DNA of 64,000 nucleotides, from positions 5,779 to 69,778 of the IMG/VR virus record IMGVR_UViG_3300034101_003146; one strand, given 5' to 3'. This document shows positions 5,278 through 11,070 of the stretch, piece after piece. Each line of letters starts with the position of its first letter. The first letter of the stretch is position 1. The stretch is from a virus. A program made the position numbers and the translations under genes. The notes under the pieces are model-generated. The model saw only the letters and a list, made by a program, of their open reading frames with translations. It made no database searches and was not told the DNA's origin.

Positions 5278-6339
5278 ATGAACACATTAGATAAACAATA
5301 CACAGACCTACTCCAAGACATATTAGATAATGGTGTTGAAAAAGATACACGTAACGGAAAAGTAATATCAGTATTTGGAAGACAAATACGTCATAAAATG
5401 AGTGACGGATTTCCACTTCTTACAACTAAAAAAATGGCTTGGAAACAAATTGTAACTGAATTATTATGGTTTTTAAGAGGAGATACCAACATTAAGTTTT
5501 TAGTTGACAATGGTTGTCATATTTGGGATGGTGATGCGTATAAGAGATATTGGTTTAATTGGAAACCTATGTTAGAAGATTGTGGTGAGGATTTAACTCC
5601 ACACACACAAGAAGAGTTTATCAATCGTATCAAAACAGATGATGAGTTTGCTAAGAAGTGGGGTGAACTCGGACCCGTGTATGGGAAACAGTGGAGAGAT
5701 TGGACTGCAAATCCTAACCACACTTGGGGTGTAGACCAAATCGCAAACCTAATCAACGACCTTAAAACAAATCCTGATTCAAGGAGACTAATGGTTTCAG
5801 CTTGGAATGTAGGAGAATTGGATTCAATGGTTCTTCCACCTTGTCATTATGGATTTCAAGTTTATACAAGAGAGTTGAGTTTAACTGAAAGATATGAATT
5901 GACAGGGATTTTCGGTAAAGAAAAATTACCAGGAGAACCTTCATATACAGAAGAACAACAACACTCTTTGTTAGATGAATTAGTACCTAAACGAGCAATC
6001 TCTTTAATGTACAACGCCAGAAGTCAAGACGTTCCGTTGGGAACTCCATTCAATATATCATCCTACGCATTATTATTAGAGATAATCGCTAAGATGGTTA
6101 ATATGGTTCCTGATGAATTGATTAGTAATATGGGTGATTGTCACGTCTATCTAAACCAAATCGATGGAATTAAAGAACAATTAACAAGAGAACCTTTTGA
6201 GTTACCGAAATTAGTTATTTCTAATCAAGTTTATTTTAACGAAGGTATTGACGAATTTTTGAATAGTTGTTTAATAACCGATTTTCAAATTGAGGGTTAT
6301 CAAAGTCATCCAACAATAAAATTCCCACTTTCTAATTAA
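5278..6339 (+). CDS. thyA: Thymidylate synthase
   Basis: FPLLTTKK, ELLWFLRG, LGPVYGKQWR, DSRR, LPPCH, RSQDVPLGTPFN motifs. Confidence 0.97.
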   Translation: MNTLDKQYTDLLQDILDNGVEKDTRNGKVISVFGRQIRHKMSDGFPLLTTKKMAWKQIVTELLWFLRGDTNIKFLVDNGCHIWDGDAYKRYWFNWKPMLEDCGEDLTPHTQEEFINRIKTDDEFAKKWGELGPVYGKQWRDWTANPNHTWGVDQIANLINDLKTNPDSRRLMVSAWNVGELDSMVLPPCHYGFQVYTRELSLTERYELTGIFGKEKLPGEPSYTEEQQHSLLDELVPKRAISLMYNARSQDVPLGTPFNISSYALLLEIIAKMVNMVPDELISNMGDCHVYLNQIDGIKEQLTREPFELPKLVISNQVYFNEGIDEFLNSCLITDFQIEGYQSHPTIKFPLSN

Positions 6340-6369
6340 TTTTAATTGTATGTTTAAAAGTTATATAAA

Positions 6370-6819
6370 ATGGAATTAGTTACTACTTACATTTGTAAAC
6401 AATCCGATATTGGAGTACACGCCAACATGTTTGGTGGTACTATATTAGGATTAGTTGATCAATCGGCTGGAGCATATGCCTCGCAAATTTGTGATACCCC
6501 AAGGATGATTACGGTTAAGATTGATGAATTGATATTTGAAAAACCTATTAGAATATCAAATATTGTTAAGATATATTGTAAGGTACAAGAATTTGGTAAT
6601 ACATCTGTAACATTATATGTTGAAGTACGAAAACATAATGTTAGAACGGGAGTTCAAGATTTAATTTTACATACAAAAATTAAATTTGTACATGTAGATG
6701 AAGAAGGTATTCCATTACCAATACCGGAACGTATTAAATCGCGTTATCATAACCGATTAGAAAAATTTAATAAAGGTTTATTGAGTGATGAAGAACGATT
6801 ATTGGAAAAAAAAGTTTAA
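6370..6819 (+). CDS. Acyl-CoA thioesterase (hotdog fold, YciA-like)
   Basis: D.GVHANMFGG..L..VD...; GNTSV; FVHVDEEG.P. Confidence 0.85.
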   Translation: MELVTTYICKQSDIGVHANMFGGTILGLVDQSAGAYASQICDTPRMITVKIDELIFEKPIRISNIVKIYCKVQEFGNTSVTLYVEVRKHNVRTGVQDLILHTKIKFVHVDEEGIPLPIPERIKSRYHNRLEKFNKGLLSDEERLLEKKV

Positions 6820-7190: not shown

Positions 7191-8414
7191 ATGAAATCAA
7201 AAGTAAAAATAAAAGAAGTAAAGAAAATTACTAAAAGTGATAGAACTATCGACTTAACTGGTTTTAAAATGCAAGACCATCTTAACCCTAAAATATGGGG
7301 TGATAACCAAAAACTACGTCCTGAAATTAAAAAAAATTTACTTAAAATCGCTGATGATTATTTTGAAGGTTTAGAACTTGAGGGGGTTGATATTGATGAT
7401 ATAACATTTACCGGTAGTTTAGCTAATTACAATTGGTCACAATACTCCGATGTAGATTTACACATATTAATAGATTATAAAGAAGTACCTGTGGACGAAA
7501 ATTTAGTACAAGACTTTTTAAAAACTAAAAGTACTTCTTGGAATAATAACCACGATATAAAAATATATGGTTATGACGTTGAATTATATGTTCAGGATAT
7601 TTCCGAAGAACATGTTTCAACAGGTGTTTATTCTATATTATATGATAAATGGTTAACACAACCAAGTAGAAAAAAAATTACTGTTGATAATATAAACGTA
7701 AAATTAAAATCTAATCGTATAATGGATTCTATTGATGACTTATACGATGAAATGAAAGATGAAAAAAATTACGATACTGTAGTAAAAAAGGCTGACAAGA
7801 TTAAAGATAAGATAAAGAAGATGCGTCAAGCTGGTTTAGATGAGGTTGGTGAATTTTCGGTTGAGAATATGGTTTTTAAAGTTTTAAGACGTAATGGTAT
7901 GTTAGAAAGATTATCAGATATTAAAACTGTGGCTTATGATAAATCTGTTTCATTATCGGAATCATTAAAAGAAAGTTTTGGTGATTTTAATTGGGTTGAT
8001 GAAATTCCAGAACTATCACCGTGTGAACAATTCATACTTGATAAATTATCGGAATGTGAATTGGTAGGATTAAAAAAACGACCTGGATGGACAAAATATG
8101 TTAATAAAAATGGTGATTTTTTATTCCTAGATAATATCAATACTGGTACCGATAAACCAATTTTATACGCAGATTATGATAAAATTTGGTTAAAATGTAA
8201 GGAAATGGGGGTTTCTTATGAAGAATTTCAGAAAATTTGTAAGCATATGTTGTATGAAACCCATGAACGAAAGGTATCTACAGCCTTTTGGTCTGATGTA
8301 TCTTTTTTATTACCGTTGTATGAAACCCATGAACGAAAGGTATCTACAGCTGAAATATTTGACGCTTTAAATAATGATAAGTTGTATGAAGTCCATAAAC
8401 GAAAGGGAAAATAA
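7191..8414 (+). CDS. Pol-beta-superfamily nucleotidyltransferase (aa 1-~255) fused to an unknown C-terminal module ending in a translated CRISPR-like array
   Basis: TGSLANYNW...SDVDLH (GS + DxD) and VELYVQD; junction SLKE|SFGDFNWVD; LYETHERKVSTA repeats. Confidence 0.8.
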   Translation: MKSKVKIKEVKKITKSDRTIDLTGFKMQDHLNPKIWGDNQKLRPEIKKNLLKIADDYFEGLELEGVDIDDITFTGSLANYNWSQYSDVDLHILIDYKEVPVDENLVQDFLKTKSTSWNNNHDIKIYGYDVELYVQDISEEHVSTGVYSILYDKWLTQPSRKKITVDNINVKLKSNRIMDSIDDLYDEMKDEKNYDTVVKKADKIKDKIKKMRQAGLDEVGEFSVENMVFKVLRRNGMLERLSDIKTVAYDKSVSLSESLKESFGDFNWVDEIPELSPCEQFILDKLSECELVGLKKRPGWTKYVNKNGDFLFLDNINTGTDKPILYADYDKIWLKCKEMGVSYEEFQKICKHMLYETHERKVSTAFWSDVSFLLPLYETHERKVSTAEIFDALNNDKLYEVHKRKGK

Positions 8415-8416
8415 AT
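8249..8416 (+). CRISPR. CRISPR-like mini-array: 2 identical 36-nt repeats, 1 degenerate repeat, 2 unique 30-nt spacers; type VI-B-like
   Basis: Repeat GTTGTATGAAACCCATGAACGAAAGGTATCTACAGC at 8249-8284 and 8315-8350; degenerate copy from 8381 (23 of first 26 nt match); spacers 8285-8314 and 8351-8380; terminal pairing GTTGTA/TACAGC. Confidence 0.8.
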
Positions 8417-8463
8417 ATAATTTAGTAAAATAACAGATATTTATATAAAAATAAAATTTAACA

Positions 8464-8736: not shown

Positions 8737-11070
8737 ATGGGAAATATAACTAATAAACAATTAGAAAGAATGAAAATGTTAATGGGTGGTGTTAAACCTG
8801 TTAATGAAAGTGTTAACCTTTCTTCTATTGCATTAACAAAAAAAGCACCTAACGATAAATATTATAGTATTGTTAGAGAAACTAATAAATATTTTATTAA
8901 GGAATCTATAGATGGTGTTAACTACGACTACATTGGTGGTTTAGGTAATAAAAATAAAAACCAATTTAATTCATATGAAGATGCCACTAGACGTTTAAAT
9001 TTAATGTTTGAGGATTTTAATAGAACTTATGGTATTGAAGTAGGTACTAATATTTTGACACCAGATTTAATTCAAGAAAAAAAGTTTGTAATTAAAACAA
9101 AAAAGAAAAAGAAATCTAAAGGTTCAGAAGAAGCAACAGGTTTTGATTTTGGTGGTGAAGAAGAAACTACTGATACAGAAACTGATACTGATACCGAAAC
9201 AGAAGGTGGTGAAGAATTTGATTTTGGTGGTGAAGAAGAGACTACTGACGCGGAAACTGATACCGAAACTGATACTGAAACAGAAGGTGATGAAGAATTT
9301 GATTTTGGTGGTGAAGAAGAAACTACTGATACAGAAACAGAAGATGGTGAAGAATTTGATTTTGGTGGTGAAGAAGAGACTACTGATACAGAAACTGATA
9401 CTGAAATCACAGATGATGAAACTGATGAAGATTTAGATTTAGAGAGTGATAGTGAGGATAATATTAAAGATATACAAAAATTAACAGGTAAGTTAGGTCA
9501 AAAACTTAGAGATACTGAAGATGTTTCTTCAGATTTAAGTAAATGGGTAGCTAAAAGTGTTATATCGGCGTTAGATTTAGACCTTATGGATAGTGAAGAT
9601 AAAAAAGATATTATCCGTGCAATTAAGAAAAAAGGTAAAGAAGATTCCGATGCTGAGTTTGATTTTATGAGTAATGATCCTGAAGATGATGAAGATGATT
9701 ATGACTGGTACCCAGACCGAGAATTTAAAGAAAAATTCTTATCATCATATGAAGATGACGATGACGATGTTGAGTATGATTGGAGTACATTAACTGATGA
9801 AGAAAAGTCTAGGTTAATGACTACTGAGGATGAAGAAACTGATTACGGTCCAGGTGATGAAGATGTTGAAGGTTCTGAAATTATTCTAGATGATTATATG
9901 GAAGATGATGATTATATAGAAGATGATGGTGATTTGGTGGATTGGAATAGTTTGTCTGATGAAGAAAAAGGGGTGGTTTTAAACCCAAAAAAAGATTATA
10001 TGGGTGGTTGCACTGACTATATGAGTGGTTGTAAAGATTATATGGACGACCCTTATATGATGCCAAAAACAGCACCAACAAAACCAACAACAAAACCTGA
10101 TGTAAAACCAGGTACAGATAAACCAACAGTAACACCATCAAAACGTCCATTTACTCGTCCACCACATATTCCGCCAGATGAAGAATCAGCACCTAAAGCT
10201 TCAGAAGGTGAAGATTTTTACGGTATAAACTATGACAATGACGATACTTTAGATTATATGGGTGATGTAGATGACATCGGTGGTAAACTACGTGGTAGAC
10301 CCACTAATAAATCAATAACAAGTAGAGGTACGTTACCTAAATCATATTTAAGTGACAAACAAAGGTTAAATAAATTGGCTAAAAGTTTTGCTGATTTAGA
10401 TATGAAAGATGAATACACAACTGGTAATGTGGTTCCATATTACGATGATGTTAGAAGAAAAGGTGACTTTGGGTATGAAAATTTGCCATCAGAAAAATGG
10501 CGTAAAAACCCTTTAGAAAATGACACCAAATTTGATTACGATTTTGAACAAGATGATATTGTGGTAAACCCTAACAAAATCAGAACTAATTTTGATTATA
10601 TGCAAGATTTAAGTGAAGACCATTTAAATACAAAAATGGTATCTATAGAACAAGAAATGGCTTATGAAGATGTTGAGGATATGGCTAGACAAAATGGTTT
10701 AGAAATATCGTGGGATAAAAAAGATAAGTCTTCAGATCCTGAAGAGGAAACTGTTTATTTAAACCTTAAACGTGGTAATAAAATTGTAGGTAGTGTTAGA
10801 ATTAATGCTGTTGGTGATGTTGAAATTGGTGGTCCTATGAAAAAATCATTTAAAGGACAACCTCTTGACAATCTTAATGATTTTTACGAATATTTGGGTG
10901 AAAAAAATATAGAAATGAGTCCAAAAACAGCACCAACAAAACCAACAACAAAACCTGATGTAAAACCAGGTACAGATAAACCTACCCCTAGTAAAAGACC
11001 ATTTACTCGTCCACCACATATTCCACCAGATGAAGAATCAGCACCTAAAGCAAGAGTAAAAAGAAAGTAA
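8737..11070 (+). CDS. Large acidic low-complexity protein, possible prohead core/internal head protein
   Basis: D/E-rich; FDFGGEEETTD repeats; duplicated Pro-rich block; upstream of the head genes. Confidence 0.6.
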   Translation: MGNITNKQLERMKMLMGGVKPVNESVNLSSIALTKKAPNDKYYSIVRETNKYFIKESIDGVNYDYIGGLGNKNKNQFNSYEDATRRLNLMFEDFNRTYGIEVGTNILTPDLIQEKKFVIKTKKKKKSKGSEEATGFDFGGEEETTDTETDTDTETEGGEEFDFGGEEETTDAETDTETDTETEGDEEFDFGGEEETTDTETEDGEEFDFGGEEETTDTETDTEITDDETDEDLDLESDSEDNIKDIQKLTGKLGQKLRDTEDVSSDLSKWVAKSVISALDLDLMDSEDKKDIIRAIKKKGKEDSDAEFDFMSNDPEDDEDDYDWYPDREFKEKFLSSYEDDDDDVEYDWSTLTDEEKSRLMTTEDEETDYGPGDEDVEGSEIILDDYMEDDDYIEDDGDLVDWNSLSDEEKGVVLNPKKDYMGGCTDYMSGCKDYMDDPYMMPKTAPTKPTTKPDVKPGTDKPTVTPSKRPFTRPPHIPPDEESAPKASEGEDFYGINYDNDDTLDYMGDVDDIGGKLRGRPTNKSITSRGTLPKSYLSDKQRLNKLAKSFADLDMKDEYTTGNVVPYYDDVRRKGDFGYENLPSEKWRKNPLENDTKFDYDFEQDDIVVNPNKIRTNFDYMQDLSEDHLNTKMVSIEQEMAYEDVEDMARQNGLEISWDKKDKSSDPEEETVYLNLKRGNKIVGSVRINAVGDVEIGGPMKKSFKGQPLDNLNDFYEYLGEKNIEMSPKTAPTKPTTKPDVKPGTDKPTPSKRPFTRPPHIPPDEESAPKARVKRK
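9142..9405 (+). repeat. Four tandem coding repeats FDFGGEEETTD(TE)n
   Basis: TTTGATTTTGGTGGTGAAGAAGA(A/G)ACTACTGA occurs 4 times. Confidence 0.9.
10063..11052 (+). repeat. Dispersed ~135-bp duplication (10063-10200 and 10921-11052) encoding PKTAPTKPTTKPDVKPGTDKP...PSKRPFTRPPHIPPDEESAPKA
   Basis: Near-identical nucleotide blocks. Confidence 0.9.

Follow-up and report, generated by a model that had tools for sequence, protein, structure and literature searches.

Type VI-B CRISPR arrays have repeats that fold over their whole length into a hairpin, which is bound by Cas13b and cut at the repeat 3′ end (PMC13187072). The same source describes how bacterial type VI arrays hide their first repeat in a leader–repeat hairpin, and how overexpressed extraneous CRISPR RNA (crRNA) of VI-B2 arrays lowers Cas13b defence about 1000-fold (PMC13187072). 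Flavobacterium columnare carries a VI-B array that lacks its own cas1 and cas2; type II-C Cas1 machinery fills it in trans, also with host DNA (PMC8092290). In phages, mini-arrays, solitary repeats and compact cas-less arrays of huge genomes are already known (PMC11656645, PMC10651486, PMC7162821), mini-arrays and solitary repeats as means of counter-defence or of competition. The solitary-repeat survey detected such repeats for all CRISPR types except type VI, and it masked confident open reading frames (ORFs) before the search, so that a repeat inside a gene would have been missed (PMC10651486). Here we describe an array at positions 8249–8416 of a 64,000-nucleotide (nt) stretch of viral DNA (hereafter the window), taken from a 69.8-kb IMG/VR virus record (G000). 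The array is VI-B-like and forms part of the 3′ end of a gene that belongs to a multi-copy phage family; its spacers turn over in nature, and no cas gene was found on the phage (Cas13b and Cas1 were searched).

An array at the 3′ end of a phage gene

A first-pass annotation, made from the letters alone, had read this locus as two identical 36-nt repeats and a degenerate third, separated by two unrelated 30-nt spacers. A repeat search found all of these details correct:

8249–8284, + strand: repeat 1, 36 nt; leader-proximal, and at the same time the final 12 codons of a conserved domain
8285–8314, + strand: spacer 1, 30 nt, G+C 0.30
8315–8350, + strand: repeat 2, identical to repeat 1
8351–8380, + strand: spacer 2, 30 nt, G+C 0.20
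8381–8416, + strand: terminal degenerate repeat, 69% identical; contains the ORF stop at 8412–8414

The distances from repeat start to repeat start are 66 and 66 nt, and repeats 1 and 2 are 100% identical. With up to three mismatches allowed, the 36-nt repeat occurs twice in the window against 0.00 expected, and 0 of 100 shuffles held two copies; the 69.8-kb record has no further copy, and the exact repeat was found in 0 stretches of IMG/VR. ORF 7191–8414 (+ strand, 407 residues) reads through the whole array, giving LYETHERKVSTA twice, then LYEVHKRKGK, and then the stop at 8412–8414 in the third copy, which bears out the earlier statement that the array is in frame and that the ORF ends inside the degenerate repeat. 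Folded by itself, the repeat is predicted to form a hairpin over its whole length in which the ends pair (−7.4 kcal/mol; equalled by 7 of 200 shuffles), consistent with the pairing ends noted in the first-pass annotation, and the terminal degenerate repeat is predicted not to form this hairpin. Rfam gave six chance-level matches (E 0.1–7.8), none on a repeat and none to a CRISPR-DR family.

Related arrays were collected from five phage records (G000 and four relatives), further IMG/VR loci and 14 JGI metagenome stretches. The collection holds 32 arrays of 2–5 repeats with 66 distinct spacers; one locus, L197, is counted in these totals and left out of the G+C analysis (65 spacers). In 30 of the 32 arrays a gene for the same domain as in the window (the module) lies directly upstream, and its final 12 codons, in frame, make up the first repeat; the two exceptions are a cut contig (L022) and L197, a plain tandem repeat. 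Nine of the module relatives whose sequences were read share one design at the protein end, two 12-residue units with 10 unrelated residues between them. In L008, L011 and L012 the 36+30 units do not cease at in-frame stops, and the 36-nt units continue in another frame after 31–32-nt spacers in L004, L006 and L010. Spacer length is 30 nt in 49 of the 66, with nine of 29 nt, five of 31, two of 32 and one of 28; the spacers are mutually unrelated (median best identity 10 letters). The relatives, like the window, have degenerate terminal repeats. In G004, a half-complete genome, there are seven arrays of at least two repeats. A 13-nt core served for the scans; most phage repeats have it as CCATAAACGAAAG, the two of the window as CCATGAACGAAAG. 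It is present in 33 of 33 phage repeat variants, with 10 invariant columns, although the module proteins are only about 40% identical. Seven single core matches with up to three mismatches in G000, G001 and G004 sit in unrelated ORFs and were treated as chance.

The array is thus a nucleotide-level feature of CRISPR type rather than a protein repeat. Among homologues, spacers defy alignment, range from 28 to 32 nt and often carry in-frame stops or frame shifts, whereas a protein tandem repeat would have units diverging together, alignable linkers and a kept frame, none of which was found. In a synonymous-site test the codons ACC, CAT, AAA, CGA and AAG were invariant in the repeat; this is not strong evidence, since in a sample so closely related and A+T-rich there is little variation at many codons upstream either.

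Spacer turnover takes place next to the gene, and strains differ in their spacers. Of the three spacers in one G004 array, the homologous arrays in G002 and G003 have the distal one alone, the two extra spacers being gene-proximal; the pair L017 and L026 likewise has a common distal spacer and different proximal ends. At the window locus itself, a 987-nt lake contig from run X7, about 95% alike, has 31 other letters between repeat 1 and the terminal repeat; the shorter side of this joint spans 165 letters. The family therefore has the marks of a CRISPR array, namely unique spacers, proximal gain, a degenerate terminal repeat and strain-variable spacer content. The spacers also look foreign by composition: they average a G+C of 0.387, where 30-mers drawn at random from the phages average 0.303, and a value of at least 0.45 is reached by 17 of 65 spacers but by 7.1% of the random 30-mers.

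Three side observations concern the same arrays. In L197 (positions 1–300, − strand) the core CCATAAACGAAAG lies in a perfect head-to-tail 34-nt tandem repeat with neither unique spacers nor a module gene upstream, so that a reading of L197 as an array with 32-nt spacers was rejected; the core there may be a binding site in its own right. In one phage group (L008, L010, L011, L012, L014, L015, L022, L023 and L028) the degenerate last repeat is followed without a break by some 45 conserved nt, which include a ATATTTATA motif and the start of the next gene (MKNLIKKILKEE...); units of gene plus array thus follow one another in tandem, and unrelated genes have the same N-terminal leader. Finally, 25 of 65 spacers begin with T, and frame offset 0 holds 60 stop codons against 22–37 in the other five frames, because many spacers start with TGA, TAG or TAA; the true repeat boundary, or an integration preference, may lie one base further on.

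Likeness to type VI-B arrays and proposed use by a host Cas13b

The 36/30 geometry and the repeat ends had been called typical of VI-B arrays of Bacteroidota, and a pattern scan and the spacer lengths support this. The window repeat was masked to GTTG, N19, RGGTA, N3, ACARC and sought in two copies with a gap of 28–32 nt, for which rough arithmetic gives about 0.001 chance matches. The pattern picked out at least 120 bacterial arrays, almost all in Bacteroidota, including those of Bergeyella zoohelcum ATCC 43767, Segatella buccae ATCC 33574 and F. columnare. Seven of eight large ORFs adjoining pattern loci scored as Cas13b above the NCBIfam cut-off, and home-made hidden Markov models (HMMs) found Cas13b at 65 of the 120 listed loci, and Cas13b or a divergent two-HEPN relative at 77. 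In an unselected sample, all three Cas13b loci had a pattern array just downstream of cas13b on the same strand. The window's own ends, GTTG, AGGTA and ACAGC, are of VI-B type, and the VI-B format of a 36-nt repeat with unique spacers of about 30 nt is found both in the window and throughout the phage family; in bacterial VI-B arrays 802 of 971 spacers (83%) are 30 nt.

Phage and bacterial repeats are both predicted to fold as end-paired hairpins. RNAalifold gave no consensus structure for 110 bacterial repeats, and single folds were compared instead. Among the 33 phage variants, 89.7% of cells are compatible with the hairpin, compared with 85.9% in shuffles, none of 500 of which reached the phage value; changes among the variants lie mostly on one side of the hairpin. 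In 18 of 30 phage loci, including the window, the first repeat is predicted to keep its own hairpin and not to pair upstream. There is no conserved leader–repeat hairpin in these loci, a mean of 5.0 repeat bases being paired upstream against 6.3 with shuffled upstream sequence.

The leader of the array is a gene, and its leader-proximal repeat is also the last 12 codons of the phage module. As to function, 8249–8416 is probably a cas-less VI-B-like mini-array with that gene as leader, whose RNAs a host Cas13b uses as decoys or guides and to which host Cas1–Cas2 adds spacers. The array would be transcribed together with the module gene, and each repeat would form a whole-repeat hairpin of the kind bound by Cas13b. 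A host Cas13b would then take up the array RNAs, which could serve it as guides or, in the manner of Racr or extraneous crRNA, act as decoys that target nothing. Host Cas1–Cas2 would insert new spacers in trans, as for the F. columnare VI-B array, and each insertion would copy the first repeat and incidentally replace a short unstructured protein tail. Since the first repeat keeps its own predicted hairpin in those 18 loci, module mRNA could yield decoy RNA and a few crRNAs while a host integrase extends the array.

If Cas13b does take up these RNAs, the array would show how large lake phages handle RNA-targeting immunity and that coding sequence can serve as leader and first repeat; it would also stand for a new class of arrays invisible to gene-masking pipelines, with spacers that could double as a host record. 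More tentatively, module gene and repeat may together make up a two-part anti-Cas13b device of huge phages, in which the 3′ end of the mRNA acts as a free VI-B repeat mimic and the host adaptation machinery mistakes it for an array and adds spacers; or the pair may be phage-autonomous, with the module protein as partner of the repeat. This we regard as possible but doubtful; if it is right, the device would be the first type VI RNA anti-CRISPR, and the arrays a running log of DNA met in infected cells.

Several observations weigh against use of the array by a host Cas13b. The 13 masked positions were chosen with VI-B repeats known, so that the pattern scan is not an independent test; overall, the window repeat is identical to bacterial repeats at 15–24 of 36 positions, 13 of them forced. 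Loop columns 18–21 read TTTG in at least 90% of the 110 bacterial repeats but AACG in 33 of 33 phage variants, and the phage inner stem has 2–3 base pairs (bp) with an 11-nt loop in another register, compared with 5–6 bp in VI-B. The expected match to CRISPR repeats was thus obtained at the masked ends, with VI-B arrays of Bacteroidota, and not in the central part. In a 232-nt context the minimum free energy fold pairs repeat 1 with upstream coding sequence, this fold being no better than shuffles (z = −0.39). Cas13b is rare, occurring in 3 of 401 Bacteroidota genomes sampled evenly. A host array with two copies of the phage core gave 0 matches in 185,579 species genomes, a set that may not include the host, and three copies of the core were found in JGI metagenomes only in 14 short phage-like stretches, none longer than phage size. 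Constancy of the core over phages with modules about 40% identical fits a phage-intrinsic constraint better than tracking of hosts.

In the phages themselves neither of the two Cas families searched was found: Cas13b (NF038190) is found in 0 of the five records, one of them 96% complete, and Cas1 (PF01867) has no match in the same five. The earlier statement that no cas genes lie nearby therefore holds in G000 for these two families. Neither of two home-made Cas13b HMMs matched a phage, and in a crude test none of 29 G001 ORFs of at least 600 residues had two R-x4-H HEPN-like motifs. That no phage-borne effector or integrase came to light in these searches speaks for machinery of the host. The failure to find protospacers counts against use of the array by a host Cas13b. 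None was found in the five related phage records and nine further loci, where 39 spacers match only their own arrays, nor in IMG/VR for three spacer cores searched as exact cores only; INPHARED gave only chance-level matches (E 0.2–0.6), and these searches covered viral sequence. The search for phage matches that the first-pass annotation had proposed thus came back empty, also for spacers 1 and 2 of the window itself in the related records and viral databases searched. A flank resembling a protospacer-adjacent motif, TTTANNNNN, has been reported upstream for the VI-B system of F. columnare.

The scan also turned up 1011–1237-residue ORFs that adjoin VI-B-pattern arrays and lie below the NCBIfam Cas13b cut-off (L050, L051, L071, L102, L124, L137, L046 and L092). 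Seven of these eight have no match and one a weak match at 57.6 bits; seven of eight have R-x4-H near both ends, and as a group they align to Cas13b by hhalign with a probability of 96.9. They look like a divergent Cas13b-like clade.

Alternative explanations

Because spacers are gained at the gene-proximal end, each gain must change the protein tail, and spacer capture might be selected for the new 10-residue peptides or tails it creates, with the array kept readable as protein. This is the diversification of the C-terminus that had been suggested at the outset, and part of it stands: the whole window array is open in frame, as is the one-spacer X7 variant, and 49 of 66 spacers have the 30-nt length that is a multiple of three. 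Selection on the frame is another matter. Shuffled versions of window spacers 1 and 2 are open in 0.75 and 0.32 of trials, so that their freedom from stops, although real, does not exceed chance. In the gene frame (spacer offset 1), 33 stop codons fall in the 66 spacers, within the range of 22–60 in the other five frames. Slightly more spacers are open than in shuffles (40 of 66 against 35.9 ± 4.0), an excess that is not significant (P = 0.18), and for first spacers the figures are 20 of 31 against 17.1 ± 2.7. As stops are not depleted in the gene frame, protein diversification is unsupported. Moreover, 17 of 66 spacers have a length not divisible by three, and arrays continue out of frame; the 30-nt mode is the same in non-coding bacterial VI-B arrays, so that selection on the frame is not needed for it; and the tail is predicted to be disordered. 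Homologues were expected to end in in-frame arrays with stop-depleted spacers; their first repeats are indeed in frame (30 of 32), but the spacers are not stop-depleted and the frame is often lost. The in-frame reading of the array looks incidental, translation through it not being conserved in the family, and we judge selected dual coding quite unlikely. For annotation, the last 40-odd residues of ORF 7191–8414 are most likely incidental read-through of the array. That no CRISPR-like process is at work, the repeat being an ordinary protein tandem repeat or chance, is very improbable: the units do lie in frame, and module relatives have LYETH.RKV as a conserved protein motif, but the repeats are identical over 36 nt while the spacers share nothing, a coincidence with no matches expected by chance, and the arrays of relatives run on behind stops and in other frames with spacers replaced between strains. 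It is more likely that the array feeds or jams a host Cas13b defence than that it serves as protein.

A different proposal leaves the host out. The core could be the site of a phage factor, perhaps the module protein, with a phage enzyme that escaped recognition adding spacers and the likeness to VI-B being convergent or ancestral. Such a phage-autonomous repeat system would explain why the core persists in every variant in spite of the low module identity, and why no host array with this core appeared in the species genomes or the JGI metagenomes. It would also account for as many as seven arrays (of at least two repeats) in half a genome, for the tie of the array to one gene family at all times, and for the same core in the plain 34-nt tandem repeat of L197. 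Yet no candidate integrase or effector was found in the searches made (Cas1, Cas13b and the HEPN motif count), and the module has no known nucleic-acid-binding fold. Much of the constancy of the core also follows from the coding of T-H-K-R-K in the first repeat, which is the template for new repeats, and spacer lengths and end motifs fit VI-B closely. We consider this system unlikely and favour use of the array by a host Cas13b.

The module gene, its phage and known systems

Apart from its tail, ORF 7191–8414 is made up of three parts, as judged by profile matches, comparison of relatives and structure prediction:

7191–7958, + strand: nucleotidyltransferase (NTase)-like N-terminal part (residues 1–256), matching phrog_36119
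7959–7973, + strand: junction ESLKE, the module beginning after LKE (comparison of fusions and stand-alone copies)
7974–8294, + strand: conserved phage module domain of about 100 residues (relatives and AlphaFold)

By sequence, the first part belongs to the phrog_36119 family, which is nucleotidyltransferase-like with its role unassigned; the match covers ORF residues 14–255 over profile positions 8–247 of 247 (E 1.2e-48), and a Pfam match to an MTPAP-like palm is weak and below the cut-off. Searched by tblastn, the ORF matched 45 phage records, and all 30 of the matches listed stop at or before residue 250. Residues 257–407 are a separate module. HMMER found 35 module relatives at E ≤ 0.001 among 1.84 billion representatives; many are stand-alone proteins of 120–150 residues that start with MKNLIKKILKE, others are C-terminal fusions behind an LKE-type junction. 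The [LI]KE(S/E) junction that precedes the module in fusions to unrelated proteins also closes the N-terminal leader of the stand-alone copies, and a search of 5.8 billion proteins found the module behind two further unrelated N-terminal parts (P0003 and P0004; P0005). Contigs of runs X6 and X14, about 88% alike, join position 7949 to 8427 through seven other letters and so have the NTase gene without module and array; with 25 letters on the shorter side of the joint this suggests relatives that lack both, as a hint and not a proof. The mobile module of domain plus array proposed in the first-pass annotation agrees well with these arrangements, since the pair stands alone or behind unrelated proteins.

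AlphaFold gives a predicted local distance difference test (pLDDT) above 90 for module residues 20–112 (8016–8294), and in the model repeat 1 accounts for the module's final strand and for the end of its last helix; past the first repeat the pLDDT falls below 65, and the tail is predicted to be disordered. The upstream ORF is a real, conserved and confidently folded domain, only the tail behind repeat 1 appearing incidental. Record G000 has no second copy of the module. Neither Pfam nor PHROG gave a match of weight for it, and no fold match was obtained (best Foldseek E against the PDB 0.11); the best VIA-align match, to an MCM N-terminal domain with a Z of 4.7 and a root mean square deviation of 2.9 over 73 residues, is within the noise of the tool and was rejected. 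By its relatives, the module is a multi-copy family of huge lake phages.

Record G000 has a G+C of 0.295 and a CheckV completeness of 16% at 69.8 kb, so that the phage must be very large. Proteins similar to its own occur in Lak megaphages, other huge phages and Maribacter phages, and its sequence is present (at least half of sampled words) in 14 of 20 listed lake or freshwater runs; none of the 20 runs listed is an RNA run containing the window stretch. Just upstream of the array locus, 5278–6819 encodes a thymidylate synthase (PF00303, E 6.8e-92) and a 4HBT thioesterase-fold protein. Downstream, 8737–11070 (+ strand) is a strongly acidic ORF of 777 residues with tandem FDFGGEEETTDTETD-type repeats of 57–81 nt, in which a Pro/Lys-rich stretch (PKTAPTKPTTKPDVKPGTDKPT...PPDEESAPKA) is present twice.

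Among known systems, the phage arrays are closest to the VI-B arrays of Bacteroidota (B. zoohelcum ATCC 43767, L105; F. columnare, L100; S. buccae ATCC 33574, L058), with which they have in common the 36-nt repeat, the 30-nt spacer mode and range of 28–32 nt, a 5′ GTTG, RGGTA at positions 24–28, a 3′ ACARC, and the predicted whole-repeat hairpin. Common to both is also the position directly downstream of a gene on the same strand (cas13b in L185–L187, the module gene in the phages), and the lack of cas1 and cas2 at the locus together with growth at the leader end, as described for F. columnare (PMC8092290). Unlike VI-B loci, the five phage records searched have no cas13b; the phage loop is AACG rather than UUUG, and the inner stem is shorter; the arrays have 2–5 repeats, the first of them coding sequence. 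Furthermore, no leader–repeat hairpin is predicted in 18 of 30 phage loci, whereas such hairpins are described as widespread in type VI systems (PMC13187072).

Like virus-borne mini-arrays and the compact cas-less arrays of huge phages (PMC11656645, PMC7162821), the array in the window has few spacers, neither adaptation genes nor an effector, and a large phage genome around it. Known viral mini-arrays have repeats identical to those of the host, and their targets are mostly related viruses (PMC11656645). In the present case no host array with the core was found and no spacer searched matches a related phage; the leader is a gene, and a genome may hold several arrays. The Racr solitary repeats (PMC10651486) and the extraneous crRNA of VI-B2 arrays (PMC13187072) offer an analogy in that a phage-borne repeat mimic could tie up an effector. 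A repeat that doubles as the 3′ end of a gene was not described in the literature searched; the solitary-repeat tables of PMC10651486 and the array tables of PMC7162821 may hold such loci. Arrays mistranslated by gene callers (PMC7673337) likewise give predicted proteins with spaced repeats that derive from an array. The present case differs from these in that the upstream ORF is real and conserved, and that repeat 1 truly encodes the last helix and strand of its domain.

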